Part shown: positions 7,018 through 63,421 of the stretch, one piece after another
Layout: every line of letters begins with the position of its first letter
Position numbering within the stretch: the stretch's first letter is position 1
Translations under genes and position numbers: made by a program
Notes under the pieces: model-generated
What the model was told of the DNA's origin: nothing
Seen by the model: the letters and a program-made list of their open reading frames with translations, nothing else
Databases searched by the model: none
NCBI GenBank assembly: GCA_964437495.1
Contig: CAYTGV010000009.1
Span: 6,983 to 70,982, forward strand
Source: an uncultured Planctomycetia bacterium
Lineage (GTDB): Bacteria; Omnitrophota; Gorgyraeia; B26-G9
Reading direction: 5' to 3'
Length of the DNA stretch: 64,000 nucleotides

Positions 7018-7097
7018 CGACTTTACACGCTATTGATAGCCGGGCTACCGAGATATAAGCAGTTCGGCTTTTATATTATAAGGAGGAAAGGAGGAAC

Positions 7098-10200: not shown

Positions 10201-13200
10201 CAGTAAGTCCTGGGGAGAAGCAGTAGTGGTCGATGTCAGTGATTTAAGCGGTTTTGCTGAGGCCCTGGGCAGTGTTAAAGGTGATGAGAACTATGAAGTT
10301 GAGTTTGATTTCAACGAAGATGGCGAAATTAATCAGGCTGATATGGATATTTTAGAGGAAGATTTTACTGGTTCTGAAAATATGGTAAATCAGTTCATTA
10401 ACCTTACTGCAGAAAAATCTGATTTAAAAGATTTCGCTAATACTTTTGAATCAAAGGTACTATATAAGGCAACACAAACCGGATATACTGTATATGACAA
10501 ATACGGAAAAGCATCAGAGGTTTATAATTCTGAGCCTATTATTGTTGATGGAGTTACAGTAGCAGACGGTGTTTTAAATCAGAAATATGTTTACAATGAA
10601 AGAGGCTTCATGACCAGATCCGAGTCATATGGGATCAATATGGATGAATACGGAAATGTGCAAATGCAGGAAGATATCCCTGAGGCCTTACTGACTGGTT
10701 ATACCTTGTTTGATGCCGGTTCAAAGCCTACGGAAACCTATTCAGTTTATAATAGTCAGGAACTTGACGATCAAGGTAATCCTTCTATTGATGTAATGTC
10801 TAAAGTACAGGATTATACATATGAAGACGGTTTTCTGATCCAAACAAACAATTATGCCAGAAACGGCGCAGATGCAGGTTATACAACATTTGATAAATAC
10901 GGACGCCAAGAGGCATCATATAATGAAAATGAAGAGCCCCAGAAAACATCAACATATCAGTATTCTAAACAGGGATTTCTTACACAGACAAACAGCTATG
11001 GTTTAAATGGCGCCTATCTTGGAAAAACATTATTTAACAAAAAAAGCAGACCAATTGAATCCTACAACATGACGGGATCAAAAAATACGGAAAAGGGGCT
11101 GACCCAGAAATTTGTATATAATGATTATGGGTTTTTGACAAACAGCATAAGTTATGGAGAAGACCAGATTTTAACCGGACAGACATTTTATAACGGTTAT
11201 GGAAAAGCAATGTATAGCTCTAATGATGTGGGAATTACCAATTCAGCCTATGTATATGATTCAGCTGGATTTCTTGATCACACTCTGGCTCTGTCTTTTG
11301 AAGTAGGCGCAGGGCCTGATGAGGCAACGCATAATAACTTAAATGATTCAGAAGATACATTAAACACTCAGGTGCCTGAGAGCGGTTATTATGTAATCAC
11401 TGGCTATACAGTCTTCGGTGATACATCCAAGCCTGAGGCTGCTTATCAATGCTGGGGATGGACAGGCGATAATCTGCCGGCATACGGCGATGGTGCTAAA
11501 GTACAGGAATACAACTATACAGATGGTTTTCTTACAAGCACTTCAAATTACGGTAAGGATGAAACATTTATAGGTACAACTGTATTTGATAAATACGGAC
11601 GCCAGGAGGCATCATATAATGAAGTTGATGTTGATGGAGACGGCTTAGGTGAGCTTACGACAAAATTCAAATATTCAAAACAGGGTTTTATGAATACATC
11701 CTACAATTATGGCGCAAAAGGTTCTCTTGTTGGAACTACAACTTTCAATAGCTTGGGTAGACCGGAACAAAGCATTAACCAAAGAAAAGCGGTTACTCAA
11801 ACCTTCCATTACAATGAATTTACTGGAGCATTGGATGAAAGTTATTCCTGGGGTGAACCGACAGAGGTTGACGGTGTATCTACTCCAACCTTAACCGGAA
11901 CAACTGAATATGACACCTGGGGAAAAGCACAGACTCAGTTTAATTCCGAAGGCAGCATTGTTGCTAAATATGACTATGATGTGCATGGATTTATGACCCG
12001 CGCGTTTTCGTTCAGCGGCGGTACTGCTACTGATGTAGGAGTATGTACAGGATTTACAAATTATAACGCAGCCGGAAGACCGGAAGGGGCATATTCGGTA
12101 TTTAATCCGACAACTGCGAGCGGCGACTTAATGGGTAGTTGGTACGATGATTATTTCTATCTCGGGGTTGATGAGAATACCATTGGAGTTACAAAGGTAC
12201 AAGATTTCATCTATAACACAGAGGCTGAAGTTGGCGGAGATATCTTGGGGTATATCGGAACTTCTGATACCGGATTTTTGACAATGACAGTCAGTTATGG
12301 TGATAATTACAATGCGGATAACCCATCTGAATCTTTTATGGGATATACGACATTCAATAGATACGGACAACAGGATTATTCCTATAATGAACTAAATGAA
12401 CAGACAACCAAATTTAATTATTCAAGCTCAGGGTTTTTAAGTGAAACCTATAACTATGGTATAGACAAAACATTGACAGGAAAAACTGTTTTCAATGCTA
12501 CGGGAAGACCGGAAGCCTCATATAATGAGAAAGGCGCTTTACTGCAGACTTTCGAATATGTTGGCGGATTTCTTACAGCCAGTACAAGCTATGGTGATCC
12601 TGGAGATTTAGAAGTAGGCGGAATAACAGGAACTACTTCTTATGATATATACGGCAAACAAGACCAATCGCTCAATGCGGAGGGCACCCTTGTAGGTACA
12701 TTTGAATACTCAGTAAACGGTTTTATGACCAAATCCAATACCTGGGGTTATGGATTGGATAATACTACCGGAGAAACTGGCTCTACGATTACTGGCTTTA
12801 CAAATTACGATAACAAGGTCAGACCTGAAAACAGTTATGCTGTATATGAAAGTTGGCTTGGCTACAATGAATCGCTTTCTCAGGTGTTTTCATATGACAA
12901 CGATGGAGAACAAACAGGGTTTGTAACCGGCGCTCAGACATATGTTGTCAATAATGACCATAATTTTGGAACCGATAATATTGCCAATGATATTGATACT
13001 GGAGAGGTATTGCTATCAGGAACTGTCGAATATAACCACTATGGCAGACCAGAACAGACATACAATAAAGAAGGCGCAATAGTCTCAAAGAATATTTATA
13101 GTTCCAATGGTTTTATTACCAAGACTGATAACTATGGTGAGGATGGAAAAAAAGTCGGGTCTCTGTATTTTAGCGATGTTGGCAGGCCTCTTTATGCAAC

Positions 13201-14104
13201 CAATCATTCTGGTGGTGTTACAACAGAATATGTTTACAATAACGCTGGATTCTTGAATCAGACAATCGGATATATCGGCGGATCGATCAATGAAGAAACC
13301 GGAGATATCGAAGGAGTTATGAGCTCATATACAACATTTGATGTCTATTCTAAAGCTCAGGAAACCTTTCAATTGTGGACAATGAGTGAATCATCTGTTA
13401 ACTCGGAATACTATCAATTTGATGAAAATGGTACGGCTAACTATACTATAAACGGTGATGGATCTATCAGCGATGGCGGATTGACCTCAGTGAATCAGAA
13501 TGCTGATATCAGTCACTACAACGCTTTTGGATCGCTATTACAGACTGATAATAAAGGCCGACAGGGAAGCACTGTCAGTTCAACTATGTATGACTCTTTT
13601 TCTAAGCCGACATCTATCTGGAATGATAAAGGTTCGCTTGTTCAGGTTTACCATTATTCCGCACAGGGATTCCTGGATTACTCTATCAGCTATGCTACGA
13701 TGAAGAGCTATAATGATAGAGGAAACCCGGTTGATGATGGTGACTGGGATACAACAACAGAAACCTCAATAACGTTCTTTAACACGTATGGTCAGCAGAC
13801 AAATGGCTATGTTCTTAGCAATGACAGCAGCAGCGGCCAAGAAGGTTGGGACCTGGTTAACTATGTCCAGAATATTGACAATCAAACAGGCCTGGAATTG
13901 GGCGCAAAGCAGAGCGAGTATAAATATGATAATAACGGCTTCTTGTCCCAGACCAAGAACTATCAGGACAAACAGTATATTGGTTATACAACATTCGATC
14001 TAAGCGGAAGACAAGATGAATCATTTAACCAATCAGGTACATTGACCACCACTTACTTATATGATTTAAACGGCTTCTTGAACAAAAGCGCTTCGCATGG
14101 TTAA
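7220..14104 (+). CDS. Giant secreted repeat protein (2,294 aa) built from ~25 divergent YD-like repeats; likely surface/adhesin-type protein
   Basis: RBS GAGAGGAGG. N-terminal signal peptide (IVLVSFLVNALTLGNAFA). ~38-40-aa periodic unit [YxYxxxGF(L/M)xxTxxYG...GxTx(F/Y)DxxGRPxxSYNxxG] recurring along almost the whole length, with a non-repeat insert at ~9100-9560. Confidence 0.85.
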   Translation: MFNSIRSYTYIVLVSFLVNALTLGNAFALDLEAWQDMLMSDEVIQGVFGGVISSQSESGEMDTAVAPAPRVIEQSNGDIAIRFSDSAQASVSTTTEGLTKVTYSMSGARVKVKDLETNEEFEFQYELEGSVVKLVNSSGAVVRQETYNNFGQLLTTKAQGTNTNVYSSDGLNTLVKSIDQWGNETIYDDESRPDFAQYIEVDGTVVVFRNYTFDNIGILESIVDENGNSITFLADGIRVDEIRNFAGTLTSSYQYDDVSGNLISVTDHVSDSITIVDGGQYTQTYDIVPVLDDNNNPVLDAGNEPVTELVLKGTYNYDVAGNVSAITNIGEEGCVTGWTDYDEFGRISGTYNHEGALVQSYMYNDHGFLQQTMSLGDAQTVVSVTKFDLKGRPMEVWQIGNGGNKVKIQEYVYKENGLLDTTFSLGILRGTDETNETTFNKPIDTNGNLVTDGRFTYFTTSTTEYDKKGRPSTVYSIVRNDNGDYISGYDDNGDVITTADSTQALLEKQQSYSYDKRGFLSKTTSYGFNNRATSTTQFDRYGRPEKSFNAQGEQTQEYVYNLDGFLVQTKNFGENGVQTGYTNYDAKGKPTDVYNHLDTLTQKYVYDENGLMVMSLNLNGTDGVNSEIISTMSDVELIAAMWDDSFSAEVLAGIGAYNEIEGDGIPALNEALMTAIWDENNEHTTDFKKKCAMMLIKTFSDGAKGGNQYLINDVGSAYHMLGQFLEEEGNNEGAVAAYKIQASEFTGAMAIADGVSVSVTAWSTDRLVNMTDANGDPVAVNTAVVTGYTIFGGDSKPISSYQCYDDGVNGLQVTKVQDYDYSYEATKKIIVGYDTDNKPIYEKITFTQFSNFVRKTINYGDYEDTNANGTVGDAGDVQVTTGFTVFDNYGRQLETYNEDGNVVQKYSYSKSGFLNFTYSYGKDKALTGTTVFDNYSRPIASFNAYGKATRIPADLIAALADGLSIADIENPEWQPFLKGLTQTFEYGTDGLLATSKSWGEAVVVDVSDLSGFAEALGSVKGDENYEVEFDFNEDGEINQADMDILEEDFTGSENMVNQFINLTAEKSDLKDFANTFESKVLYKATQTGYTVYDKYGKASEVYNSEPIIVDGVTVADGVLNQKYVYNERGFMTRSESYGINMDEYGNVQMQEDIPEALLTGYTLFDAGSKPTETYSVYNSQELDDQGNPSIDVMSKVQDYTYEDGFLIQTNNYARNGADAGYTTFDKYGRQEASYNENEEPQKTSTYQYSKQGFLTQTNSYGLNGAYLGKTLFNKKSRPIESYNMTGSKNTEKGLTQKFVYNDYGFLTNSISYGEDQILTGQTFYNGYGKAMYSSNDVGITNSAYVYDSAGFLDHTLALSFEVGAGPDEATHNNLNDSEDTLNTQVPESGYYVITGYTVFGDTSKPEAAYQCWGWTGDNLPAYGDGAKVQEYNYTDGFLTSTSNYGKDETFIGTTVFDKYGRQEASYNEVDVDGDGLGELTTKFKYSKQGFMNTSYNYGAKGSLVGTTTFNSLGRPEQSINQRKAVTQTFHYNEFTGALDESYSWGEPTEVDGVSTPTLTGTTEYDTWGKAQTQFNSEGSIVAKYDYDVHGFMTRAFSFSGGTATDVGVCTGFTNYNAAGRPEGAYSVFNPTTASGDLMGSWYDDYFYLGVDENTIGVTKVQDFIYNTEAEVGGDILGYIGTSDTGFLTMTVSYGDNYNADNPSESFMGYTTFNRYGQQDYSYNELNEQTTKFNYSSSGFLSETYNYGIDKTLTGKTVFNATGRPEASYNEKGALLQTFEYVGGFLTASTSYGDPGDLEVGGITGTTSYDIYGKQDQSLNAEGTLVGTFEYSVNGFMTKSNTWGYGLDNTTGETGSTITGFTNYDNKVRPENSYAVYESWLGYNESLSQVFSYDNDGEQTGFVTGAQTYVVNNDHNFGTDNIANDIDTGEVLLSGTVEYNHYGRPEQTYNKEGAIVSKNIYSSNGFITKTDNYGEDGKKVGSLYFSDVGRPLYATNHSGGVTTEYVYNNAGFLNQTIGYIGGSINEETGDIEGVMSSYTTFDVYSKAQETFQLWTMSESSVNSEYYQFDENGTANYTINGDGSISDGGLTSVNQNADISHYNAFGSLLQTDNKGRQGSTVSSTMYDSFSKPTSIWNDKGSLVQVYHYSAQGFLDYSISYATMKSYNDRGNPVDDGDWDTTTETSITFFNTYGQQTNGYVLSNDSSSGQEGWDLVNYVQNIDNQTGLELGAKQSEYKYDNNGFLSQTKNYQDKQYIGYTTFDLSGRQDESFNQSGTLTTTYLYDLNGFLNKSASHG

Positions 14105-38665: not shown

Positions 38666-40183
38666 TTGTTAAAGAAATCTAATAAATCAATCAGTTTATT
38701 CCTAATATTTGTTATTTATGTTTTTTTCACAGCTGTTGCACCGGCATACCCCCAGCAGCAAGACAAAAAAACTCTTACTGCTATGCAACAGTTAGAAGAT
38801 GCGGTTTCTAATGTGGCTGAAAACGCAGGCAACACAGTTGTGGGCATCAGTACACAAAGGAATAGACATGTAATATCATATTTCAGGAATCATGGTCATG
38901 AATTCCTTAATGATTTTTTCCGTACTTTCTTTTTTGGAGATTCCTCCAGTCCTGAGTATAAACAATTCGGCCTTGGATCCGGAGTGATCATAAGCCATGA
39001 TGGATATATAATAACAAATGAGCATGTTATATCCGGAGCTGATAAGATCATTGTAATCCTGGCTGACGGGCGTGAGTTTCAAGCAAAATTAAAGGGAGCT
39101 GAGTACCGAACGGATATTGCATTATTAAAAATAGATGTGTCTGATCTGCCTTATGCTGAGCTTGGGGATTCAAAGACTCTCAGAAGCGGTCAATGGGCTA
39201 TAGCAATCGGCAATCCTTATAGTTATGAAGTCTCCAGCTATAAGCCTGTGGCTACCTTTGGTATTATAAGCGCCTTAGGCAGAACTTTGCCCAAGTCTAA
39301 CAATTTAACCCGGGGATATCTTGACCTGATCCAAACTGACGCAGCTATAAACCCGGGAAATTCAGGGGGCCCATTGCTAAACATCCTGGGTGAAGTCATT
39401 GGAATTAATGTAGCTATTTCAAACAGTAATTCCTCTGGGATTGGTTTTGCCATTCCTATAAATGATGCCAAATCAGTTATTGAGAAGCTTTTACAAGGAG
39501 AAAAAATCCTCGGGGGATCACTTGGCATAGGCATTAGAGACATTAACTATATTATGGCAGAGCTCTTTGACCTGAAAAGAGCACAAGGTGCCTTAGTCCT
39601 AAAGGTATTAAAAGGCAGTCTAGCTGATAGCGCTGGATTGCGCTCACAGGATATAATCCTAAAATTTAACTCTGAGAAAGTTGAGAATACAATAGATTTT
39701 ATGAAAAAAATCAGCCGCGCAAAACAAGGAGATGAGATCAGACTTAAGATTCTTCGCAACTCCTTGCCCCGTCTAATAAGGATAAAACTCAGCGAAATAC
39801 CTAAAGAAATAGCCTCAGAACAAAGCCATGAGCTCTTGAGGGTCAAAAAGAAAAAAGCAGCGCCATCCAGAACTCTCAGGAATGATCAAAACAACAAAGA
39901 AACTTCCAAGACTCCGCTTAAAACCTGGAGGGGTATGAAAGTCGCTGAAATAACTAAGGAATTTGCTAATAATTTTGAAATCGATACAGATATTGGAGTT
40001 ATTGTAACTAAAGTGATTGAGGGCACTCCGGCAGAGCAGGCAGGAATAAAAGTAAAGGATATTATTACCCAAATAAATACTTTTAATATACAAACACTGG
40101 AAGATTACCTGTTTGCCACTTCAAAGGCTTTGGGCAAAGTGCTGATTAAAACTAATAGAGCATATTTAATGATACACGACTAA
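38666..40183 (+). CDS. htrA: Periplasmic serine endoprotease DegP/HtrA family (trypsin domain + two PDZ domains), TTG start
   Basis: Signal peptide. Catalytic triad contexts ITNEHV, RTDIALLK, GNSGGPL. Two PDZ-like regions. Confidence 0.85.
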   Translation: MLKKSNKSISLFLIFVIYVFFTAVAPAYPQQQDKKTLTAMQQLEDAVSNVAENAGNTVVGISTQRNRHVISYFRNHGHEFLNDFFRTFFFGDSSSPEYKQFGLGSGVIISHDGYIITNEHVISGADKIIVILADGREFQAKLKGAEYRTDIALLKIDVSDLPYAELGDSKTLRSGQWAIAIGNPYSYEVSSYKPVATFGIISALGRTLPKSNNLTRGYLDLIQTDAAINPGNSGGPLLNILGEVIGINVAISNSNSSGIGFAIPINDAKSVIEKLLQGEKILGGSLGIGIRDINYIMAELFDLKRAQGALVLKVLKGSLADSAGLRSQDIILKFNSEKVENTIDFMKKISRAKQGDEIRLKILRNSLPRLIRIKLSEIPKEIASEQSHELLRVKKKKAAPSRTLRNDQNNKETSKTPLKTWRGMKVAEITKEFANNFEIDTDIGVIVTKVIEGTPAEQAGIKVKDIITQINTFNIQTLEDYLFATSKALGKVLIKTNRAYLMIHD

Positions 40184-40276
40184 CAAAGCAGTTCGTGATC
40201 TTGCGATGCACGACTAACAAAGCAGTTCATGATTTTGCGATGCACGACTAACAAAGCAGTTCGTGATCTTGCGATG
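40175..40276 (+). repeat. Three tandem 34-bp direct repeats (CACGACTAACAAAGCAGTTCGTGATCTTGCGATG), each able to form a 7-bp hairpin
   Basis: Read directly. Copies 1 and 3 are identical; copy 2 has 3 substitutions. Copy 1 supplies the htrA stop codon. Confidence 0.9.
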
Positions 40277-40307
40277 CATAAGCAATAGGAAAGGTTTATC
40301 GCATCAT

Positions 40308-51067: not shown

Positions 51068-51940
51068 ATGAAAAAAAGAAACAAAAAAAGGAATCAGATA
51101 AGTATCTCAGAAAAAGATATCAAGAATAAGCTTTATGGTGCGTCTCCAGAATCGGTACAAAAAGAGACCGTTCAAGAATCTATGATCACAGAAAAAGATA
51201 TAATAAAGAAGCTTTATCCGGCTAAGATAAGTTCTGATATAAAACCAGCCGCTAAATCTAAGGCCAGCCTTGAACCTAAAGAAAAAACAGCTGATTTATT
51301 CGAACATATAAAACCTATGCAGCCGGGAATTCATGAAGAAATAGAAATCCTGAGGAAATCAATCCAGAGCCTGGAAGATAAACTAAAGGCCTCAATTGAT
51401 CAAAAAGAACGCCTGAAAGTAAAATTAGTGCAAAAAAGAAAGTTAATAAATATTAGAGAAAGGCTGGCCGATCTAATCCTAAACCGTATGCCTGAAAAGT
51501 TCATTATACTCTTGATCGTTTTTCTGATCTTAGGCATATTCATAGTAATGAAAGGCTTAAAACCTGAGTCAGGTAAAAAGGTTAAACAAGTGAGTATTGT
51601 TGAACAAGTTATCGAACCTGAGGTTGAAAACGCTACTGTTGAGATAGAGAAAAAAAGCATCCCAGTCATTCAACCTGCCACCACAGTAAACAAGCGATAT
51701 ACTATTCAGGCTGCGGAATATGCTGATGAACAGGCAGCGCAGCGTTTTATAGACACTTTAAAAACGCAGGGCTATATTGTGAACATAGATACTATTTACC
51801 GGGATAAGAATAAAACTAAGGCATATTTTAAGATCAATGTCGGAGCATATGAAACTTTAAATGAAGCAAAGAAATTTAATAAAATATTCAGAAAAAAAAC
51901 CAATATCAATGATTCCTTCATTAAGGAGCTAAAACAATAA
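51068..51940 (+). CDS. SPOR-domain membrane protein (single TM, C-terminal peptidoglycan-binding SPOR domain) inserted in the trp operon
   Basis: TM helix [17 protein letters not shown]-terminal [18 protein letters not shown]...[22 protein letters not shown]-like. Confidence 0.55.
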
Positions 51941-53934: not shown

Positions 53935-55644
53935 ATGGCGAGCAATCAAAAACTGGGCGAATTACTGGTGCAAAAAAAAATAATCACCCAGGAACAGCTC
54001 AACAGCGCGCTTATTAGACAAAAAAAAACAAATCTGCGGATAGGAGAAGAGCTGATCCGCAGCGGAATTGTCAGCGAAGAAAGCATTATTTCTACTCTTG
54101 CGGAATTAATGGATATTCCTTTTATTAGAATTCGTACCGCTAATATCGATCAACAAGTTATCAATAAAGTGCCCGCTAGGTTTGTAACTCATTACAATTT
54201 TTTCCCCCTGCGTGAAGACGAGGGAATTCTGGGCATTGCCGTAAGCGATCCTCTGGATCTTTATTCACTGGACGAAATAAAGCTTATGCTTAAGCAGCCT
54301 ATAAAAATATCTCTGGCGACTTCCCTTGAAATTAACGAAGCAATAAAAAGATATTACGGTGTCGGCGCTAAAACCATGGCCCAAATGGTTGATGATACAC
54401 CTCATTTACAAATACTTTCAAAAGCAAATGAGAATAATGAGGAGATTCAGATGGAAGCAGCAACTGATGACCCTTCGGTAATTAAATTTCTAGATCAGAT
54501 AATTCAGCAGGCTGTAAGAGAAAGAGCTACGGATATACATATTGAGCCATTTGAGGATAATCTCAGAGTGCGTTACCGTATTGACGGACTACTTTACGAA
54601 GTGCCTGTACCGGCCGCTATTGCCCACTTTCAGTCATCAATTATTGTGCGCATGAAAATAATGGCTGAGCTTGATATTGCAGAAAAGCGGCTGCCTCAGG
54701 ATGGCAGAATACAGATTAGAATTAATAATGAAGATTTTGATTTTAGAATTTCAATTCTGCCGACTGCTTTCGGAGAAAGCATAGAAATAAGAATATTATC
54801 CAGAAAGCAGATATTTTTTACTCTTTCTGACTTGGGATTAGACACTAAAGGTATGGATATTCTGAATTCTATGCTCAAAAAACCGCATGGCATTATTCTG
54901 GTCACCGGGCCGACCGGAAGCGGAAAAACAACCACACTTTATTCGTGCCTAAACAGAATTAATGCTATGGAAAGAAAAATTATCACTATTGAAGACCCGA
55001 TCGAATATAAACTGCACGGTATTACTCAGGTTCAAGTTCATCCCAAGATTAATTTAACTTTCGCAAACGGCCTGCGTTCCATGCTTCGCCATGACCCTGA
55101 TATCATGATGGTCGGAGAAATCAGGGATCTTGAAACTGCTGAGCTTTCTATCAGAACGGCCTTGACCGGGCATCTTGTTTTCAGCACCTTACATACAAAT
55201 GACGCGCCTGGGGCTATAGCTAGATTGCTTGACATGGGTATTGAACCTTATCTAGTCGCCAGCTCCCTAAACTGCGTTATTGCGCAGCGCCTAGTGCGGG
55301 TCATTTGCCCGGCCTGCAAACAACCTTATGAAGGACATGAGGAATTAATGGATGAATTCGGTATACATAAAAACAGATTTCAGGGAAAAACTCTGTACAA
55401 GGGAGCAGGCTGTGAAAATTGTAAGTTCACTGGATATTTAGGCCGAACAGCTATATTTGAGATATTGAATATTAATGATATTATTAAGGAAATGATCCTT
55501 GATCACAGCCCTTCTAACCTGATCAAGCAAAAAGCTATAACTCAGGGTATGCAGACATTGCGCTTAAGCGGCTGGGAAAAAGTTGTCAGCGGAATAACTA
55601 CACCTGAAGAAGTAATCCGGGTAACTCAACAGGATTCAGAATAG
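53935..55644 (+). CDS. GspE/PilB/MshE-family secretion ATPase with an N-terminal MshEN (c-di-GMP-binding T2SSE_N) domain
   Basis: Two tandem 24-aa MshEN motifs (KLGELLVQKKIITQEQLNSALIRQ and RIGEELIRSGIVSEESIISTLAEL) with a 5-aa spacer. Walker A GPTGSGKTTT. Asp box. Tetracysteine CPACK...CENCK. Confidence 0.85.
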   Translation: MASNQKLGELLVQKKIITQEQLNSALIRQKKTNLRIGEELIRSGIVSEESIISTLAELMDIPFIRIRTANIDQQVINKVPARFVTHYNFFPLREDEGILGIAVSDPLDLYSLDEIKLMLKQPIKISLATSLEINEAIKRYYGVGAKTMAQMVDDTPHLQILSKANENNEEIQMEAATDDPSVIKFLDQIIQQAVRERATDIHIEPFEDNLRVRYRIDGLLYEVPVPAAIAHFQSSIIVRMKIMAELDIAEKRLPQDGRIQIRINNEDFDFRISILPTAFGESIEIRILSRKQIFFTLSDLGLDTKGMDILNSMLKKPHGIILVTGPTGSGKTTTLYSCLNRINAMERKIITIEDPIEYKLHGITQVQVHPKINLTFANGLRSMLRHDPDIMMVGEIRDLETAELSIRTALTGHLVFSTLHTNDAPGAIARLLDMGIEPYLVASSLNCVIAQRLVRVICPACKQPYEGHEELMDEFGIHKNRFQGKTLYKGAGCENCKFTGYLGRTAIFEILNINDIIKEMILDHSPSNLIKQKAITQGMQTLRLSGWEKVVSGITTPEEVIRVTQQDSE

Positions 55645-55742
55645 CGCAGAAACAAAAAAATTATGAATGACGAATTATAGGTTACGAGTGAAGAGAAAAG
55701 AAAGAATTAATAAATATCAATTCAGGGATTTTCCTTCTAAAC

Positions 55743-55897
55743 AATAACTTGTGATTCATAACTAATAACTCATGACTCGTAATTTTTAACTATCGACCAT
55801 GGACTATTGACCATTGACCGTTTTTGTTCTTTTATCTTTTAACTTGTAACTTGTAACTTGTAATTCATAACTCGTAACCCATAACTCATAACTAAAT
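55743..55897 (+). repeat. Degenerate heptanucleotide tandem-repeat tract (ACTTGTA-like units, ~19 units in two blocks) ending at the pilC start codon
   Basis: Read directly. 55842-55897 = ACTTGTA x3, then ATTCATA, ACTCGTA, ACCCATA, ACTCATA, ACTAAAT, then ATG. 55743-55819 holds 11 further 7-nt units ending in ACT/ACC. Confidence 0.7.
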
Positions 55898-57103
55898 ATG
55901 CCTATATATAAATATAAAGCTAAGGTTAAGCCAGACACTTTCCGCAACGGAACCATAGAGGCAGAAAGTGAAAAAGCAGCTATAAATAAGCTTTTACTGC
56001 TTAATTATCATCCGGTATCCTTAAAAATAAAAACAGAGGATACCGAGAGAAAATTTTCTTTTTCTAAAAAGATTACATCTAAAGATATTTATATTTTTTT
56101 GCGACAGCTTGCAAATCTAAATATTGCCGGACTTCCAATAGTAAAATCCCTAGCCAATATCAGTTCACAGTCACATAATCCAAGATTGCGCTTGATTGTT
56201 CTGGATTTAAAAGAAAAGCTTCAGAAGGGAAATACATTTTCTGAAGCGCTGACATTTTATCCACATGTATTTGGCCAATTTGAAATCAATATGATAAAGG
56301 CCGCGGAAAACACAGGAACACTTCCTGAGGTAATAGAAAAAATTGCTGATCTTAAGGAGCATGATATAGCTTTTAATCAAAGAGTACGCTCGGCACTTGC
56401 TTATCCGGTTTTACTTTTAAGCGTAGGAGTGATTACACTGCTGATATTAACAACATTTGTTCTGCCGAAATTTATAACTCTTTTCAATGACTTAGACCAG
56501 CAATTGCCGATTTTGACCCAGATGCTCATAAATACAAGTATATTTTTGAAAAATTACTGGATAATTTTAAGTGCAATAATCGGCTTTATTGTTTTCTTTG
56601 CCCAAAGGCAGTTAAGAACACAAAAGGGACGTTTTATTTTTGACGATTTAAAATTAAAAATCCCTTTACTTAAAGACATTGTTTTAAAAATTCAAATCGC
56701 CCGGTTTGCCAGAACCCTGGCAAGCCTGATTGAAAATGGAGTACCTATTATAAACTCATTGAAAATAACTGCAGAAATAGCTACTAACCTTGTTTTTTCT
56801 GCTGAAATAAAGCATGTGCATACTCAGGTTACCAAAGGACAGCATATAAGTGCGGCTTTGAAAGACAGCACTATATTTGATAAAAATACGCTTGATTTGA
56901 TCAGTGTTGGGGAGGAAAGCGGAAGACTTGATGAAATGCTTTTCCGTATTGCCAAAATGAACGAAAACGAATCTTCCGGATTAATTGAAACCCTGTTATT
57001 TCTTATCGAACCGGCTTTGATTCTTATTTTAGGTATTGTTGTTGCGATTATAGTAATGGCAATTTTACTACCGATTTTTCAGATGAATTTTTTGGTTCAG
57101 TAA
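55898..57103 (+). CDS. Type IV pilus/T2SS platform protein (PilC/GspF family)
   Basis: 401 aa. Two GspF repeats, three TM helices. N-terminus MPIYKYKA..DTFRNGTIEAESEKAAINKL is PilC-like. Confidence 0.85.
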   Translation: MPIYKYKAKVKPDTFRNGTIEAESEKAAINKLLLLNYHPVSLKIKTEDTERKFSFSKKITSKDIYIFLRQLANLNIAGLPIVKSLANISSQSHNPRLRLIVLDLKEKLQKGNTFSEALTFYPHVFGQFEINMIKAAENTGTLPEVIEKIADLKEHDIAFNQRVRSALAYPVLLLSVGVITLLILTTFVLPKFITLFNDLDQQLPILTQMLINTSIFLKNYWIILSAIIGFIVFFAQRQLRTQKGRFIFDDLKLKIPLLKDIVLKIQIARFARTLASLIENGVPIINSLKITAEIATNLVFSAEIKHVHTQVTKGQHISAALKDSTIFDKNTLDLISVGEESGRLDEMLFRIAKMNENESSGLIETLLFLIEPALILILGIVVAIIVMAILLPIFQMNFLVQ

Positions 57104-57120: not shown

Positions 57121-57666
57121 ATGAAAAATAAATTCTTTATCCCGTTTAGTACTTACAAAGATGAGAAGGAATGTGTATCCCCGAGCATGGAAAAAAAGAC
57201 AAAACACTTTCAGGATAAAAACCGTAGATTAATTCTGCCAAGGATCAGGCTATCTCTAAGGGGGTTTACCTTGATCGAATTAATGCTTGTGGTAATAATT
57301 ATCGGCACTCTTGCTGCTTTAGTTATTCCCCGCTTAGCCGGCCGAGCTGAACAGGCGCGTAATACAGCTGTCAAAGCTGATATATTATCAAACATTCCTC
57401 TAGCTCTTGACCTTTATGAGCTTGATAACGGTTTCTATCCCTCAAGTCAGCAGGGACTAGAGGCATTGATTGAAAAACCGACAACCCAGCCTTTAGCAAA
57501 AAACTGGAACGGTCCTTATCTTAAAAAAAAGCCGGTTGATCCCTGGGGTAATCAATACCGATACATATGTCCCGGGGTTCATAATACTGCGGATTATGAT
57601 CTTTTCTCGGTTGGTAAAGACGGATCTGAAGGCGGTAATGATGATATTGGCAATTGGGAGGACTAA
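57121..57666 (+). CDS. GspG-like major pseudopilin/pilin with an unusually long (~48-aa) leader before the G|FTLIEL processing site
   Basis: Strong RBS AAGGAG. ...RLILPRIRLSLRG|FTLIELMLVVIIIGTLAALVIPR, then a GspG-like body (NWNGPYL...DPWGNQYRY). Confidence 0.75.
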   Translation: MKNKFFIPFSTYKDEKECVSPSMEKKTKHFQDKNRRLILPRIRLSLRGFTLIELMLVVIIIGTLAALVIPRLAGRAEQARNTAVKADILSNIPLALDLYELDNGFYPSSQQGLEALIEKPTTQPLAKNWNGPYLKKKPVDPWGNQYRYICPGVHNTADYDLFSVGKDGSEGGNDDIGNWED

Positions 57667-57673
57667 TCTGCCA

Positions 57674-58207
57674 ATGAAAAATAAAACAAAACGCTTTGCG
57701 GATAAAAAGCTTAGATTAGTTCTGCCAAAAGGCAGGCTATCACTAAGGGGGTTTACCCTTATAGAGCTACTGTGCGTAATTGTCATAATAGCTGTATTTT
57801 TTTCAATGAGTATCCCCAAATTATCTAAAACAGCCGGGAATTTTTATCTTAGAAGTAAAGCAGCTAAAATCCGGGCTTTGTGTGAATTAATAAAAAGAAC
57901 TGCAATCACTGAAAACAAGACCTATAAGTTGTTAATTGATTATTCAAACAACTCCTATTCAGTTCTTCAGAACTCTATTGATGCTATTGATGAGTTTTCG
58001 CCTGCAAGTGACTCCTTACTAAGAAAACATACTCTTCCTGAGAGCTTGTCCTTTTTTTCCCCTGAGATTCAAACCGGTATCCATGAAATAATTTTCTCAC
58101 AAAGCGGGAGTATATCTTCAGCTGCTTTTTTTATTACTAACAACAAAGACACTCCGGCCAAATTATCAACAACTTTAAGCGGAGAGATCATTTTAGAATA
58201 TATATGA
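57674..58207 (+). CDS. Minor pseudopilin (GspH-like) with a 26-aa leader homologous to the preceding gene's leader
   Basis: MKNKTKRFADKKLRLVLPKGRLSLRG|FTLIELLCVIVIIAV. Start trimmed to the ATG at 57674 (the tracked ORF starts at 57536, inside the previous gene). Confidence 0.6.
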   Translation: MKNKTKRFADKKLRLVLPKGRLSLRGFTLIELLCVIVIIAVFFSMSIPKLSKTAGNFYLRSKAAKIRALCELIKRTAITENKTYKLLIDYSNNSYSVLQNSIDAIDEFSPASDSLLRKHTLPESLSFFSPEIQTGIHEIIFSQSGSISSAAFFITNNKDTPAKLSTTLSGEIILEYI

Positions 58208-58569
58208 AAAATAAAACAAAAAATACCCCAGGATTCATTTTAATCGAAATACTTGTATCACTGTTATTGATGACTACCGGAATTCTTTTTTTGATCAATT
58301 CTCTGTCTACAATTACAAAAAGCAACCATAAGATACGAAACAACCGCCTTGCCTATACTTTGCTGGATAATGTTTTTAATCAGCTCTATTCCGGAGAGGC
58401 CATTATTCCAGGTAAAGTTGTTTTAAATAATAAAGAGTTTTTTTGGGACTTTGCAGAAAATAAAACAGATGATGGATTGAGCCATATCCTCATCAATGTT
58501 AGCTGGGGCAAAAATAATTCCGCCTCAACTGCCAGCCTATCTCATACTACAATTGACTTAAACCGATAA
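58204..58569 (+). CDS. Minor pseudopilin (GspI-like), conventional short prepilin leader
   Basis: MKNKTKNTPG|FILIEILVSLLLMTTG. 121 aa. Confidence 0.6.
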   Translation: MKNKTKNTPGFILIEILVSLLLMTTGILFLINSLSTITKSNHKIRNNRLAYTLLDNVFNQLYSGEAIIPGKVVLNNKEFFWDFAENKTDDGLSHILINVSWGKNNSASTASLSHTTIDLNR

Positions 58570-58633: not shown

Positions 58634-59824
58634 ATGGCGATATCAGTAGGGGTGGGAACTAGTAAAGAATTTGAATCTTTTGCAGCGGGTACATTAGCTG
58701 CAAAGAATGCTTTGGATAAATTAGGAAGCAATGATCCTGATATATTATTTTGCTTTGCGTCCTCGCGTTTTGATCATATACAGCTAATACGCGGCATTAA
58801 AAGTATTCTGCCGAACGCACCGCTTATCGGGTGCACAACAGCTGGCGAAATCACCAGTGCCGGCACAGAAAAAAAATCTGTAAGTATATTGGCCATAAAG
58901 TCAAACAGCCTGCATGCTGCTATAGGCATTGGTAAGAACGTGAGTAAGAACTCCCGCGGAGCCGGCCAAGAGGTAGCCCGAGATACGATAATAAAAACGA
59001 AAAAAGGGGCTATTCGCCATGCCTTTATGATGCTTCCGGACGGACTCAATGGAAACGGAGTAGAGATCATCAGGGGAGTTCAGGAAGTACTGGGTACAAG
59101 TTTCCCCATAGTCGGCGGATCTTCAGCTGACGAATTTATGTTTAAAAAAACTTTTCAGTATTATGAGGAAAGTGTATTAACTGACTGTGTCGGAGGGATT
59201 CTTTTCTCCGGAGACATTAGTGTTGGCATCGGAGCTCGGCACGGCTGGTACCCCCTTGGCAAACCGAGAATCGTAACTGAGGCAGATCACAACATAATTA
59301 AAAAACTTGACGGGAAGCCGGCAGCAAGAATTTATGAGGATTATTTCGGCAAAAGAGCCGCTGATCTAAATAATGAGCCTCTGGCCAGAATGTCTGTAAT
59401 GTATCCGCTTGGCATGTCGATACCAGAAGAAGAAGAGTGTATTATCCGTAACGCACTCAGCGTTGACAAAAACGGAGCTTTGATTTGCGCAGGTGAGGTT
59501 TCCTGCGGTTCAGAAATTAGAATAATGATGGGATCTAAGGAAGCCGCATTAAAAGCTGCTAAAAAAGCGGCAGAAATAGCCCTTAGCGGTCTCAGAAAAC
59601 AAAAAGCTGATATTGTATTTGTATTTGATTCCGTCTCACGGGAAAGACTCTTTGGACGCAAAAGTGAAGAAGAAATAGAGGTTATCAAAAGTATATTCGG
59701 CAAAGACACTCCGATAATTGGTTTTTATACATACGGAGAACAGGCTCCTCTGGGTGCAACGATAAACCTCGGACAAACATTTTTTCATAATGAAACAATA
59801 GTAGTTTTCGCAATTGGAGAATAG
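58634..59824 (+). CDS. FIST-domain sensory protein (FIST_N + FIST_C)
   Basis: 396-aa soluble protein. Recognised by overall FIST pattern (ILFCFASSRFD...GCTTAGEI...); no TM helices. Confidence 0.6.
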   Translation: MAISVGVGTSKEFESFAAGTLAAKNALDKLGSNDPDILFCFASSRFDHIQLIRGIKSILPNAPLIGCTTAGEITSAGTEKKSVSILAIKSNSLHAAIGIGKNVSKNSRGAGQEVARDTIIKTKKGAIRHAFMMLPDGLNGNGVEIIRGVQEVLGTSFPIVGGSSADEFMFKKTFQYYEESVLTDCVGGILFSGDISVGIGARHGWYPLGKPRIVTEADHNIIKKLDGKPAARIYEDYFGKRAADLNNEPLARMSVMYPLGMSIPEEEECIIRNALSVDKNGALICAGEVSCGSEIRIMMGSKEAALKAAKKAAEIALSGLRKQKADIVFVFDSVSRERLFGRKSEEEIEVIKSIFGKDTPIIGFYTYGEQAPLGATINLGQTFFHNETIVVFAIGE

Positions 59825-59830
59825 TATAGT

Positions 59831-61411
59831 ATGAAAATTAATATATGGCTGATACTCATCATCGGAGCAGCGGTATTGAGTGTTGTTGTTATTGTTGACA
59901 ATATGGTCGCTAAGCTTATGGGCGGTTTTATCCTGCTTGTTCTGCTTGCTTATCTTGCTGAAATATCGCGTGAGGAGCGGGAACAAATTGATAAAATGCA
60001 GCATGCCTTGGATAAACTGAGAAATGCTTATGGCGAACTTGATGAACAGGCAAAAATTATTATTCGTACTGATTTAGAGTTAAATCGGACGCAAGAACAG
60101 CTTGATAAAAAAATCAATGGGCTTTACACTTTACACGAACTAGGTAAATTGATAAGTGCTACCCTAGATACAGAGAAGCTTTTTTCTCAAATCACGGAAC
60201 CGCTTATTCTTAAGCTTGGATTTGAAAAAACAATAATATTTCTAAAAAATGAATCAAAACAAAATCTTGAATGTAAAGCAGCTATCGGACTTTCCTCATT
60301 GCAAATAGACAAGATAGAACAGGCAAATATAGAGCAAGACTTTCTTCAAACTGTTCTAAAAAATGGTTCTTCTGTATGGGTTAAAAATTCTGAAGCTGCT
60401 ACAGAGGAGCAAAAAGCTTGGCTGAATTTATTTGAAGTCTCTTCATTTGTAATTGTGCCTATGGTTGTCAAGGAGTCTGTTGAGGGATATATTTTTGTTG
60501 GTAATCAGACAAATTATAATTCTGTCTCTGAAGGAGATATAGATTCTCTTTTTATACTTTCTAATCAGTTGGGCATTGCCCTTGATAATGCCCAACTTTA
60601 TGCCCAGTTAAAGCGTTCGCATGATCAATTAGAGATTCGTGTAGAAGAACGCACAAGAGAATTAGCCGCGGCAAACAAAAAGCTGATCGAGCTTGATCAA
60701 ATGAAATCCGACTTTGTTTCTGCAGTTTCTCATGAATTGCGAACACCGCTGACATCAATTAAAGGCTATGCGGCAATTCTAAGTGCAGGCCGTTTAGGTG
60801 AGGTCAGTACGGTTCAGGCAGAGAAGCTTAATAAAATAAATATTCACAGTGATGAATTGATAAAACTTGTAAATGACCTTTTAGATATTGCCCGCATTGA
60901 ATCTGGCAAGATCAGTATGAGTATTAAGCATGCTTCTCTTAATGAGATCGTCAAGAGTATCGCAGATCTATTCTTCCCGCAAACTGATGAAAAGAATATT
61001 GATCTCAAACTTGATATACCGGAACAAGATATTGCTGTATGGATGGACCCCAGCCAGATATCACGTGTATTCATAAATCTTATCGGTAATGCAATGAAAT
61101 TCACCCCTGAAAAAGGCATAATAACAATAGTGTTAAAACCTGCTGAAAAATTTATTAATGTCGAAATCATTGACTCTGGTATCGGCATAAGCGAAGAGGA
61201 TATACCTCGTTTATTTAATGAATTCTATCGTGTAGACAATGCCATTAATGCTGAGAAAAAAGGTACCGGACTGGGACTGCCGCTTGTTAAAAAGATCATT
61301 GAGGCGCATAAAGGTCAGATCTGGGTCACAAGTGAAGTCGGCAAGGGAACTACTTTCCATTTCACTTTATCTGTTGAACAAATTGATGATTCGCAAATAG
61401 CCATAAACTGA
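59831..61411 (+). CDS. Sensor histidine kinase (2 TM helices, coiled coil, GAF, HisKA, HATPase_c)
   Basis: H-box SAVSHELRTPLTSIKGYA. N, G1 and G2 boxes (GNAMKFT, DSGIGI, GTGLGL). Confidence 0.85.
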   Translation: MKINIWLILIIGAAVLSVVVIVDNMVAKLMGGFILLVLLAYLAEISREEREQIDKMQHALDKLRNAYGELDEQAKIIIRTDLELNRTQEQLDKKINGLYTLHELGKLISATLDTEKLFSQITEPLILKLGFEKTIIFLKNESKQNLECKAAIGLSSLQIDKIEQANIEQDFLQTVLKNGSSVWVKNSEAATEEQKAWLNLFEVSSFVIVPMVVKESVEGYIFVGNQTNYNSVSEGDIDSLFILSNQLGIALDNAQLYAQLKRSHDQLEIRVEERTRELAAANKKLIELDQMKSDFVSAVSHELRTPLTSIKGYAAILSAGRLGEVSTVQAEKLNKINIHSDELIKLVNDLLDIARIESGKISMSIKHASLNEIVKSIADLFFPQTDEKNIDLKLDIPEQDIAVWMDPSQISRVFINLIGNAMKFTPEKGIITIVLKPAEKFINVEIIDSGIGISEEDIPRLFNEFYRVDNAINAEKKGTGLGLPLVKKIIEAHKGQIWVTSEVGKGTTFHFTLSVEQIDDSQIAIN

Positions 61412-61429: not shown

Positions 61430-62359
61430 ATGACAAAACCTAAGATATTAATAGTTGATGATGAACCTGATATAAGAGATGTCTTAAAGATCACTTTAGA
61501 ATGCGAAGGGTTTGAGGTTCATGAGGCAAAAGACGGAGTAGAAGGACTTGAAAAGGTGCATAAAACCTCGCCGGATCTTGTTATCCTTGATTATAAAATG
61601 CCGAAAATGGATGGGCACGAAGTTTGTCAAATACTAAAAAAGGATATTCTATTGCGCCATATGCCGATCATTATGCTTACTGGCAAAGGAGAGACACAGG
61701 ATAAGATAAAAGGTATAAATGCAGGAGCAGATGATTATCTTGTAAAGCCATTTGATCCTCAAGAGCTTGTAGCACGTATAAAAATGATTGTCAGACGCAG
61801 CACACGTGATCTTGATGCCAATCCACTCAGCCGCTTACCAGGCAATGTAACGATAATGACGGAACTTGACGCGGCAATCAAAGGCACTTCGCCATTTGCC
61901 ATTTGCTATGTAGATCTGGATAAGTTTAAGGCCTTTAACGATACCTATGGATTCGAACACGGTGATGAGGTTATTCGTGAGACAGCACGTATTATTTTAA
62001 ATGGTGTCCATGAGCTTGGCAATAGAGAGGATTTTGTCGGACATATCGGTGGAGATGATTTTGTTTTTCTTACAACTACCAATCTGTCTGAGACAATCTG
62101 TAATAAGATAATCAATGACTTTGACAAGATTGCTCCTTCTTTTTACAATCAGGTTGACCGGGAACGAGGTTATACTGTGGCTAAAGACAGGCAGGGTAAT
62201 GAGCAGCATATTAAACTGCTGTCAGTTTCTATAGGTATTGTAACCAACGAATTCCGTCAAATAAATCATGTTGTGGAAATCGGTGAGATCGGGGCTGAAT
62301 TGAAAAAACTCGCCAAAGCAACTGAGGGCAGCAACTTTGTCAAAGACAGCAGAAAGTAA
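61430..62359 (+). CDS. Response regulator (REC) fused to a GGDEF-type diguanylate-cyclase domain with a variant GGDDF motif
   Basis: REC (ILIVDDEPD...LDYKMP...phospho-Asp D54 context). GGDEF fold landmarks NPLSRLPGN, YVDLDKFKAFNDTYGFEHGDEV, HIGGDDFVFL. Confidence 0.8.
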   Translation: MTKPKILIVDDEPDIRDVLKITLECEGFEVHEAKDGVEGLEKVHKTSPDLVILDYKMPKMDGHEVCQILKKDILLRHMPIIMLTGKGETQDKIKGINAGADDYLVKPFDPQELVARIKMIVRRSTRDLDANPLSRLPGNVTIMTELDAAIKGTSPFAICYVDLDKFKAFNDTYGFEHGDEVIRETARIILNGVHELGNREDFVGHIGGDDFVFLTTTNLSETICNKIINDFDKIAPSFYNQVDRERGYTVAKDRQGNEQHIKLLSVSIGIVTNEFRQINHVVEIGEIGAELKKLAKATEGSNFVKDSRK

Positions 62360-62380: not shown

Positions 62381-63421
62381 TCAAGCAAAAGCATGCTTTT
62401 CAAAGGCATATTTCCTGGCAGTGCGCTGATCGATCTTATTACTTTTCATTAAAAAATTCAGCGATTGGTCCATTGTCTGCATTCCCTCTTTACCGCAGGA
62501 TTCAATTATATTCTTTATCTGAAATGTTTTACTTTCCCGAATAAGATTCCTAATAGCCGTATTGTTAACCATGACCTCTGTAGCAAGATGATTGCTCGAA
62601 CCATCACGCGAAGGAATAAGGGTTTGAGAAACCACTACTGCAACTGCCTCGGCAAATTGCACTCTTATCTGTGCCTGTTGTTCTGCTGGGAAAACATCAA
62701 TAATACGGCTTACAGATTGAGAAGCATTACGGGTATGTAAAGTAGCAAATACAAGGTGTCCGGTCTCAGCCGCAGTTACAGCATTAGAAATAGTATCCAG
62801 ATCTCTCATTTCACCTACGAGAATGATATCCGGGTCTTCTCTTAAAGCGGCACGCAGACCGCTAGAAAAACTTTTGGTCTCTGAACCTACTTCACGCTGA
62901 TTGATTATACAGCGTTTATGCTCATGCAAATATTCAATTGGATCTTCAAGCGTAATAATATGAGCGCTTCTTTCCAAATTTATTTTATTAATGATCGAAG
63001 CCAGGGTGGTGGATTTTCCGCTTCCAGTCGGACCGGTAACTAATACAAGACCTCTTTGCAAGTTACAGACATTTTTTACTGCCGCAGGAAGCCCCAGGGA
63101 ATCAAGCGGTTTTATTCTTTGCGGCACCAATCTAAAGGCAGCGCATATTCCTTTTCTGTCTTTATAAATATTAATCCTAAACCTTGCAAAATTTCCTATA
63201 TTAATCCCCATATCTATTTCTTTGCCCTTATCTATAGAACTCAATCTTTCTTCCGGCATAATATCCAAAAGAATTTTTCTAATATCAGCATCTTGTAAAG
63301 CAATGTCCGTCAGCGGCTGCATCTCTGTAGGTCGTCTTATCATCGGAGGTAATCCAACACAAAGATGCATATCTGAAATATCTCTGGTAACAATCTCTTG
63401 AAAAAGCTTTTCTGAATCCAT
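62381..63421 (-). CDS. pilT: Twitching-motility retraction ATPase PilT
   Basis: Aligns with P. aeruginosa PilT (ISDMHLCVGLPPMIR...GLVLVTGPTGSGKSTTLAS...REDPDIILVGEMRDLDT...AETGHLVFATLHT). Confidence 0.9.
   Translation of the reverse strand: MDSEKLFQEIVTRDISDMHLCVGLPPMIRRPTEMQPLTDIALQDADIRKILLDIMPEERLSSIDKGKEIDMGINIGNFARFRINIYKDRKGICAAFRLVPQRIKPLDSLGLPAAVKNVCNLQRGLVLVTGPTGSGKSTTLASIINKINLERSAHIITLEDPIEYLHEHKRCIINQREVGSETKSFSSGLRAALREDPDIILVGEMRDLDTISNAVTAAETGHLVFATLHTRNASQSVSRIIDVFPAEQQAQIRVQFAEAVAVVVSQTLIPSRDGSSNHLATEVMVNNTAIRNLIRESKTFQIKNIIESCGKEGMQTMDQSLNFLMKSNKIDQRTARKYAFEKHAFA

Follow-up and report, generated by a model that had tools for sequence, protein, structure and literature searches.

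The MshEN domain is a cyclic di-GMP (c-di-GMP) receptor domain that has already been described as widespread, including on the ATPases of type II secretion systems (T2SS) (PMC5013675). MshE of Vibrio cholerae (VcMshE; VC0405; structure 5HTL) is the extension ATPase of the mannose-sensitive haemagglutinin (MSHA) type IV pilus, and c-di-GMP is reported to promote the extension of this pilus through MshE in vivo (PMC7096442). A T2SS ATPase of Pseudomonas aeruginosa, PA14_29490, is described as binding c-di-GMP through an MshEN domain, which gives a precedent for c-di-GMP addressing the motor of a T2SS (PMC5013675). In this study, we analysed a stretch of 64,000 nucleotides (contig CAYTGV010000009.1, hereafter the window) from a member of Candidatus Omnitrophota, in which the gene at 53935-55644, gspE, encodes a secretion ATPase with an N-terminal MshEN domain. 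The protein is probably an assembly ATPase that responds to c-di-GMP and belongs to a reduced endopilus module of T2SS type, and binding of c-di-GMP by the domain itself is likely. An original prediction on this gene had proposed an MshEN-type domain on a pilus or secretion ATPase, and this is borne out by a score of 61.1 bits against a cut-off of 38 for the motif model NF053729, by the register shared with VcMshE and by a fold match to 5HTL. The gating of assembly by c-di-GMP, which it also proposed, would follow by analogy with V. cholerae MshE and the other studied ATPases.

The features of the gene are as follows.

53935-55644, plus strand: GspE/PilB-family assembly ATPase with N-terminal MshEN domain, 569 aa (open reading frame, Pfam, NCBIfam)
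53950-54021, plus strand: MshEN motif I, residues 6-29, KLGELLVQKKIITQEQLNSALIRQ (aligns to VcMshE R9-Q32; within NF053729 positions 1-52)
54022-54036, plus strand: spacer KKTNL, five residues, 30-34 (same length as KNTGR of VcMshE; PMC5013675)
54037-54108, plus strand: MshEN motif II, residues 35-58, RIGEELIRSGIVSEESIISTLAEL (aligns to VcMshE R38-Q61)
54112-54363, plus strand: MshEN C-terminal alpha/beta subdomain, residues 60-143 (PF05157, 70.6 bits, profile positions 2-86 of 90)
54460-55620, plus strand: ATPase core, residues 176-562 (PF00437 and motif positions)

The open reading frame (ORF) runs from ATG to stop over exactly these coordinates, begins 19 nt past the trpA stop and has a GGAGG ribosome-binding site lying 7 nt 5' of its start. 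The Pfam T2SSE family (PF00437) matched residues 176-562 with 452 bits. The GspE model TIGR02533 was narrowly missed (621.7 bits against an equivalog cut-off of 630.25), and the PilB model TIGR02538 also scored below its equivalog cut-off (610 against 675.65 bits). Walker A (GPTGSGKT, 325-332), the Asp box (350-358), Walker B (387-398), the His box (412-424) and a tetracysteine motif (CPAC 458-461 and CENC 493-496) were all present, and by these motifs the product keeps a complete and intact hexameric-ATPase core of the PilT class. The nearest named relatives were proteins from Candidatus Omnitrophota metagenome-assembled genomes, and the best full-length matches among solved structures were the MshEN-bearing PilBs 3JC8 and 5TSG (514 and 502 bits).

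The two tandem 24-residue motifs that had been predicted within the first ~55 residues, separated by five residues, were found at 6-29 and 35-58. NF053729 ('c-di-GMP_motif', a cyclic di-GMP-binding domain related to MshE) aligned residues 6-57 to positions 1-52 of its 53, with an E value of 6e-17 at the curated cut-off given above. For comparison, the VcMshE sequence was taken from the PDB alignment as that of 5HTL; its residues 9-61, RLGDLLVEEGIVSEAQLEQALNAQ / KNTGR / RLGDTLISLGFLSETQLLNFLAQQ, aligned without gaps to residues 6-58 of the window protein, so that 6-29, 30-34 and 35-58 pair with VcMshE 9-32, 33-37 and 38-61. The identity over the domain is ~29%. The Pfam family PF05157, which had been suggested as the alignment check, was unsuited to this purpose, since its match is restricted to residues 60-143 in the C-terminal subdomain and therefore says nothing on the motif, which NF053729 covers.

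In MshE, the ligand is contacted by positions 1, 2, 3, 17, 21 and 24 of each motif (Wang et al., 2016; PMC5013675). These positions read K-L-G-L-L-Q in motif I of the window protein and R-I-G-I-L-L in motif II. Positions 1-3 correspond in both motifs (K6-L7-G8 and R35-I36-G37) to (R/K/L)-hydrophobic-Gly, as in the extended consensus (PMC11731258), and mutants of MshE at G11 and G40 lose binding (PMC5013675). Positions 17 and 21 are hydrophobic in both motifs (L22 and L26; I51 and L55). Gly, Ala or Ser is expected at position 10 and was found in motif II (G44), with K15 in its place in motif I; a polar residue is expected at position 24 and was found in motif I (Q29), with L58 in its place in motif II. 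The claim that the key positions lie in the MshEN register therefore stands for the Arg/Lys-Leu-Gly triplet, the Leu positions and the first Gln, while two consensus residues, Gly10 of motif I and Gln24 of motif II, are missing.

Three deviations from the strict consensus were identified at key positions. The first is Lys for Arg at position 1 of motif I (K6; VcMshE R9). Lysine occurs at this position in the nanomolar binders PilF GSPII-B, Ct-PilB and Dg-PilB2, and the substitution K167R lowers affinity (Keller et al., PMC11731258). The Thermus thermophilus PilF GSPII-B domain (8PDK; Kd 6 nM) resembles the window protein closely here, with a motif I of KLGELLLQKG... against KLGELLVQKK..., but it belongs to an ATPase for type IV pili and DNA uptake with three tandem GSPII domains and retains both Gln residues. 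The second deviation is Lys for Gly at position 10 of motif I (K15; VcMshE G18), in the turn between alpha1 and alpha2. By sequence alignment, the PilBs of Myxococcus xanthus and Geobacter also lack this Gly and carry Asn. M. xanthus PilB is known through a citing paper to bind c-di-GMP, and Gly at position 10 is therefore not strictly required. These PilBs (3JC8, 5TSG) nevertheless differ in serving complete type IVa pilus machines with PilM/N/O/P/Q, whereas the neighbours in the window are T2SS-type.

The third deviation is Leu for Gln at position 24 of motif II (L58; VcMshE Q61). In MshE and PilF, this Gln forms hydrogen bonds to a phosphate oxygen and a ribose hydroxyl. The substitution Q218E at this position of PilF GSPII-B weakened binding 77-fold, yet left binding at 460 nM. 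Leu58 probably weakens c-di-GMP binding without abolishing it. With these two consensus residues missing (Gly10 in motif I, Gln24 in motif II), binding is likely and not assured.

Across all six reading frames of the window, a core tandem pattern that ignores the two deviant positions had a single match, at 53950, and none of 20,000 residue shuffles of the gspE protein contained it. This bears on the idea that the resemblance of the motif is due to chance, or that the ORF is no functional gene, in favour of which nothing can be cited besides the two deviant positions. The E value to the motif model, the shuffles, the intact catalytic motifs, an identical protein on seven public contigs and orthologs at 66-88% identity with common synteny all speak against it, and it is effectively refuted.

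To calibrate the motif model, isolated N-terminal segments of known binders and non-binders were scored with NF053729. The window protein scored 65.8 bits. Among the binders, VcMshE scored 86.2 bits, PilF GSPII-B (6 nM) 63.4, M. xanthus PilB 62.5 and PilF GSPII-C (~460 nM) 62.1, while PilF GSPII-A, a proven non-binder, scored 55.1. The window protein falls within the range of the binders (62-86 bits), ~10 bits over the non-binder. In GSPII-A, the site is occluded by an extra turn of alpha1, stabilised by an N-cap, and by contacts between the subdomains (PMC12002112). Only five residues, MASNQ, precede motif I in the window protein; judged from the sequence, this would be too short for the N'-Ncap-N1..N4 arrangement of GSPII-A.

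An AlphaFold2 model of residues 1-150, built from a 29-sequence alignment, had a mean predicted local distance difference test (pLDDT) score of 86.7. It placed helices at 7-13, 19-32, 36-42 and 48-58, followed by an alpha/beta subdomain with strands at 90-95, 98-103 and 123-127. Residues 1-58 are thus modelled as the four-helix MshEN_N bundle. In the full protein, the MshEN_C subdomain comes next and then the PilB/GspE core, the same order as in VcMshE. In a Foldseek search against the PDB, the c-di-GMP-bound MshEN structure 5HTL ranked first, with a template modelling (TM) score of 0.80-0.86 and a root mean square deviation of 2.0-2.2 Å over ~139 columns. Holo structures of PilF GSPII-B came second. 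The non-binders ranked lower, namely GSPII-A (TM 0.62) and the XpsE N-domains (TM 0.59-0.68), and the Xanthomonas citri PilB-N/PilZ complex matched with a TM score of ~0.75 at just ~15% identity.

Downstream of gspE, the same strand carries T2SS-type partner genes, followed by a sensory and signalling module.

55898-57103, plus strand: GspF-like inner-membrane platform protein (two Pfam T2SSF matches; TIGR02120 338.8 bits, below its cut-off of 424, as the best-scoring family)
57121-57666, plus strand: GspG major pseudopilin (TIGR01710 162.1 bits against 88.85; Pfam T2SSG)
57674-58207, plus strand: minor pseudopilin, weakly GspH-like (N_methyl motif; TIGR01708 41 bits, below cut-off)
58204-58569, plus strand: minor pseudopilin, weakly GspI/ComGE-like (TIGR01707 33.5 bits, below its cut-off of 44)
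58634-59824, plus strand: FIST_N and FIST_C sensor protein (Pfam FIST 169.8 bits, FIST_C 107.9 bits)
59831-61411, plus strand: membrane-anchored GAF-HisKA-HATPase histidine kinase (Pfam; sequence)
61430-62359, plus strand: REC-GGDEF response regulator with the signature GGDDF (Pfam REC 119.5 bits; GGDEF 55.5 bits, profile positions 19-98 of 161)

To place this arrangement in context, 92 loci were collected from homolog look-ups and from a scan of GTDB species genomes, of which the best 80 of 567 loci were used. Analysis by local tblastn and alignment split the 92 loci cleanly into two groups. Group A shares 66-88% identity with the query and always displayed the same order, the trp operon followed by gspE, gspF, gspG and two pseudopilins. 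The genes for the FIST protein, the GAF-HisKA-HATPase kinase and a REC-GGDD[F/Y] protein then follow in nine of the ten genomes with enough downstream sequence (the window and eight others). No GspK, GspL or secretin was detected by tblastn within 10 kb of the Group A loci. Group B, at 49-58% identity, comprises complete T2SS operons (gspE...K, L/M, C, D), and its loci showed neither trp linkage nor a downstream module of FIST, histidine kinase and REC-GGDEF genes. These operons of other Omnitrophota (L004-L006 and ~70 others) share the MshEN N-terminus of GspE with the window but continue with GspJ/K/L/M/C/D.

The motif positions were examined in both groups. Among 21 close orthologs, G8 and Q29 were conserved in all, and R35 and G37 in 20 each; position 10 of motif I was K or N, and position 24 of motif II was S, A, L or Q. 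In Group B, the core of both motifs was kept in 58 of 73 loci, position 1 of motif II was mostly Phe or Leu and position 24 mostly Gln. By sequence, an MshEN-bearing GspE is the rule in Omnitrophota, and the novelty of the window receptor is lowered because such proteins are common across the phylum.

One ortholog, at locus L007 (66% identity, with trp-gspEFG synteny), departs from this pattern. A REC-sigma54 activator gene and a HATPase-FGE-sulfatase gene replace the FIST, kinase and REC-GGDEF genes there. Its motif II, RFIDELFRADIV..., has RFI in place of Arg-hydrophobic-Gly, with Ile at position 3, and Asp at position 10. Its NF053729 score of 32.1 bits lies below the cut-off of 38, and the VcMshE substitution G40I, the equivalent of this Ile, abolishes binding (PMC5013675). 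The joint loss of motif and module points to a coupling of the two, and is suggestive only. Together, the conserved synteny and the decay in L007 support the c-di-GMP link more than did the arguments of the original prediction.

Several side observations were made at these loci. In L011 (GCA_043814605.1, 439-2143), a frameshift breaks gspE into a 104-aa N-terminal piece, whose MshEN motif is intact, and a 471-aa ATPase piece; this reflects either a pseudogene or an error of the assembly. Seven Group B loci (L081, L084, L089, L090, L080, L076 and L088) carry a distant REC-GGDEF-like relative (23-28% identity) ~5.3-6.8 kb upstream of gspE, and the association of a GGDEF gene with a T2SS may recur across the phylum in this other arrangement. 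A gene for a SPOR-domain protein (51068-51940) lies within the trp operon between trpF and trpB, in the same place in all orthologous loci examined; in L007, the SPOR-domain protein is fused to phosphoribosylanthranilate isomerase (TrpF).

A number of points weigh against a c-di-GMP-responsive assembly ATPase. In vitro, the ATPase activity of MshE is hardly altered by c-di-GMP (PMC5013675). Gln61 of MshE gives the ligand two hydrogen bonds, and the window protein has Leu at the equivalent site; Q61V is also among the many key substitutions, including G11V, R38G and G40L, of the non-binder XpsE (PMC5013675). The relaxed pattern of Wang et al., [RKPN]hGxxhhxx[GAS]hhxxxxhxxxhxx[QNKRYWST], matched neither motif, nor anything else in the window, because of Lys at position 10 of motif I and Leu at position 24 of motif II. 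The non-binder GSPII-A also lies above the NF053729 cut-off, so the model separates the two classes incompletely, and restoring the consensus in GSPII-A did not bring binding back (Neissner et al., PMC12002112), a case in which a consensus motif alone was no guarantee of binding. At the level of the locus, no secretin, GspC, GspJ, GspK or GspL/M was found in the 64-kb window by tblastn with Omnitrophota GspJ/K/L/C/D queries (E<=0.01 and E<=10), and the co-loss of motif and module rests on one genome. The GGDDF signature is usually deemed inactive, with one active precedent, GSU1937, which makes cyclic GMP-AMP (cGAMP) as well as c-di-GMP (PMC8835794). The relaxed pattern was dropped as a yes/no test, since it is broken by proven binders, namely by M. 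xanthus PilB in its position 10 and by PilF GSPII-B in its Gln mutants.

Several of these points would also fit a different role for the domain, in which the MshEN fold serves as a docking or regulatory domain for protein partners and the ability to bind c-di-GMP was lost or is too weak, given Lys15 and Leu58. Precedents exist in the XpsE N-domain with XpsL, the X. citri PilB N-domain with PilZ, and PilF GSPII-A, and the non-binding domains 7LKO, 2D27/2D28 and 9G1W are among the fold matches. The two missed consensus positions, the failure of the relaxed pattern on both motifs, the incomplete separation by NF053729 (with GSPII-A at 55.1 bits) and the drift of position 24 of motif II between S, A, L and Q in the close clade point in the same direction. 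However, the equivalents of MshE L10, G11, G40, L25 and L54/L58, mutation of which impairs binding severely, are intact and near-invariant in the orthologs, the window score lies ~10 bits over the non-binder and inside the binder range, the top fold matches are ligand-bound forms, and the motif decays precisely in the ortholog without the adjacent GGDEF module. While XpsE (2D27/2D28) and GSPII-A (9G1W) share the fold, XpsE carries the many substitutions listed above and GSPII-A a degenerate motif II with an occluding N-cap (PMC12002112); the window protein shares with these non-binders only the loss of the second Gln. We regard a pure docking role as unlikely, with an appreciable residual chance.

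The source of the ligand was considered from the genes downstream. The REC-GGDEF protein named in the original prediction has both domains, with a signature that is GGDDF and hence non-canonical. Its REC domain has an acidic pocket of the usual kind and retains the phospho-acceptor Asp as well as the conserved Thr and Lys. In the output domain, which can be aligned to the GGDEF domain of PleD, the guanine-contacting Asn and Asp are kept (NDTYGFEHGD), and no RxxD inhibitory site was found in the protein. Each of the 120 best homologues, which come from Omnitrophota and share 63-92% identity, carried GGDD[F/Y], with F in 108 and Y in 12, so that the REC-GGDD[F/Y] proteins are, by signature, a large conserved Omnitrophota family with a non-canonical motif. 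One GGDDF-EAL protein without a cyclase phenotype has been described (PMC8835794). Diguanylate cyclase activity of the window protein is plausible, with the chances about evenly balanced, and uncertain because the signature is non-canonical. For the FIST protein, an identity as the nitric oxide sensor NosP was set aside, as NF041558 gave 113.8 bits against a cut-off of 450, a family resemblance only.

The one GGDDF enzyme for which the literature search found demonstrated activity is a Hypr cGAMP synthase (PMC8835794), and a weak but discernible interaction of cGAMP with MshEN has been observed (Wang et al., PMC5013675). The domain might on this basis bind another cyclic dinucleotide, for example 3'3'-cGAMP made by the neighbouring GGDDF enzyme. 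This we consider very improbable. The REC-GGDDF protein retains the guanine-specifying Asp (NDTYGFEHGD; PleD N335/D344) and not the Ser diagnostic of Hypr enzymes, MshEN reads guanine O6 and N7 on both halves of the ligand (PMC5013675), and the same window encodes a c-di-GMP-I riboswitch together with a PilZ protein of canonical type. A Hypr or cGAMP identity was likewise ruled out as the principal reading of the GGDDF enzyme itself, with the specificity Asp retained.

For the favoured c-di-GMP-responsive ATPase, the following sequence of events can be proposed. The ligand would be made locally, as the synteny suggests, with a signal passing from the FIST sensor through the GAF-histidine kinase to the phosphorylated REC-GGDDF protein, a putative diguanylate cyclase. 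A single c-di-GMP would span both 24-residue motifs, with the side chain of K6 or R35, at position 1, on one side of each guanine and a cluster of Leu and Ile residues (L7, I51, L55; I36, L22, L26) on the other. Contacts to the Hoogsteen edge would come from the backbone amides of G8/E9 and G37/E38, and one ribose-phosphate would be bound by Q29, with the second Gln replaced by Leu58. The affinity is probably below that with Gln at 58, a loss that the affinity-raising Lys6 would partly offset. For the last step, V. cholerae MshE, M. xanthus PilB and T. thermophilus PilF serve as the analogues: with its ligand bound, the ATPase would be allowed to act on the GspF platform and to polymerise GspG, so that secretion or fibre assembly would track the level of c-di-GMP, and not the ATPase chemistry as such.

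A more far-reaching and tentative proposal is that the clade has evolved a self-contained local c-di-GMP circuit. The reduced GspE-F-G-H-I set of a locus without a secretin would be tied to its own FIST sensor, GAF-kinase and an active class of REC-GGDD[F/Y] cyclases, the MshEN site, now short of its second Gln, would be tuned to the local source, and receptor and cyclase would be gained and lost together. We hold this to be rather doubtful.

The finding adds a confident MshEN receptor, predicted from sequence, to the uncultivated phylum Omnitrophota, and leaves the knowledge of how MshEN domains work unchanged. Its main value lies in the conserved linkage of a receptor ATPase with FIST, kinase and REC-GGDD[F/Y] genes, plus a natural case with both lost. 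This linkage makes local c-di-GMP signalling and the cyclase activity of a GGDDF protein directly testable with few recombinant proteins. For the T2SS-like systems of Omnitrophota, a connection with a lifestyle of predation or dependence on a host has been proposed.

The machine served by the ATPase had been described as a pilus. A classical pilus apparatus did not hold up, as the partner genes are T2SS-type (GspG with 162 bits against 89), and no PilM/N/O/Q genes were found near gspE. In nine orthologous loci, tblastn gave no GspJ/K/L/C/D within 10 kb. The T2SS-type label is drawn from the GspF, GspG and pseudopilin neighbours and from an ATPase just under both the GspE and the PilB cut-offs, and on this evidence 'T2SS-type endopilus module' fits better than 'pilus'. 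VcMshE differs in this respect, having MSHA pilins as partners where the window has GspF and GspG, and the window locus also includes its own two-component GGDD[F/Y] module. PA14_29490 works in a complete T2SS, whereas the window cluster is locally without GspC/D/J/K/L/M, and the likeness between the two is drawn from the published description. The GspG protein ends in the typical way (...DLFSVGKDG..GGNDDIGNW), and its true start is possibly Met23, at 57187. The pseudopilin at 57674-58207 matched the equivalent gene of L004 by tblastn (9e-12).

GspG (57121-57270) and the next pseudopilin (57674-57750) have long, basic and mutually similar leaders before the G|FTLIEL cleavage site, ..KKTKHFQDKNRRLILPRIRLSLRG in GspG and ..NKTKRFADKKLRLVLPKGRLSLRG in the next pseudopilin. 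T2SS prepilin leaders are typically much shorter. The spacer between gspE and gspF (55645-55897, 254 bp) contains arrays of repeats with a 7-nt period (TCATAAC, GACCATT, CTTGTAA and TAACTCA) at 55756-55893. In the orthologs, the length of this spacer ranges from a few bp to a few tens, much less than here, and the array is therefore a lineage-specific heptamer-repeat insertion within the operon. No Rfam RNA element and no terminator-like site on the plus strand were found in the spacer. A promoter and terminator scan around the cluster was set aside as uninformative, with promoter calls no better than those in shuffles.

One further ATPase gene lies beyond the module.

62381-63421, minus strand: PilT/PilU-family ATPase, convergent with the cluster (TIGR01420 444 bits against a cut-off of 319)

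A PilT-family gene occupies this position in L003, L008 and L011 and is absent there in L001, L002 and L012, a weak association. The PilT protein was also sought as a bridge past the 3' end of the window, and had no exact match on record. Downstream in L008 and L009, just a TPR protein and an NHL-repeat protein were found.

Two other c-di-GMP elements cited in the original prediction are real. The PilZ domain protein (2722-3126) carries the canonical RxxxR (RNFVR) and NxSxxG (NVSVGG) motifs, and the GEMM riboswitch is a c-di-GMP-I riboswitch at 6930-7052, with 50 bits against the Rfam gathering score of 35. Both had been invoked in support of control at the ATPase. They lie 47-51 kb from gspE and show only that the organism uses c-di-GMP. 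A tRNA gene (2590-2664) overlaps the first ATG (2623) of the long PilZ ORF, so that the real start is the Met at 2722, in agreement with the original prediction. The riboswitch lies 168 nt upstream of an ORF for 2294 aa (7220-14104) without any Pfam match, and this protein is apparently under c-di-GMP control. Elsewhere in the window, a 34-bp tandem repeat (3.2 copies, 93% match) was found at 40171-40278, at the junction of the gene for an HtrA-like protease and the next ORF.

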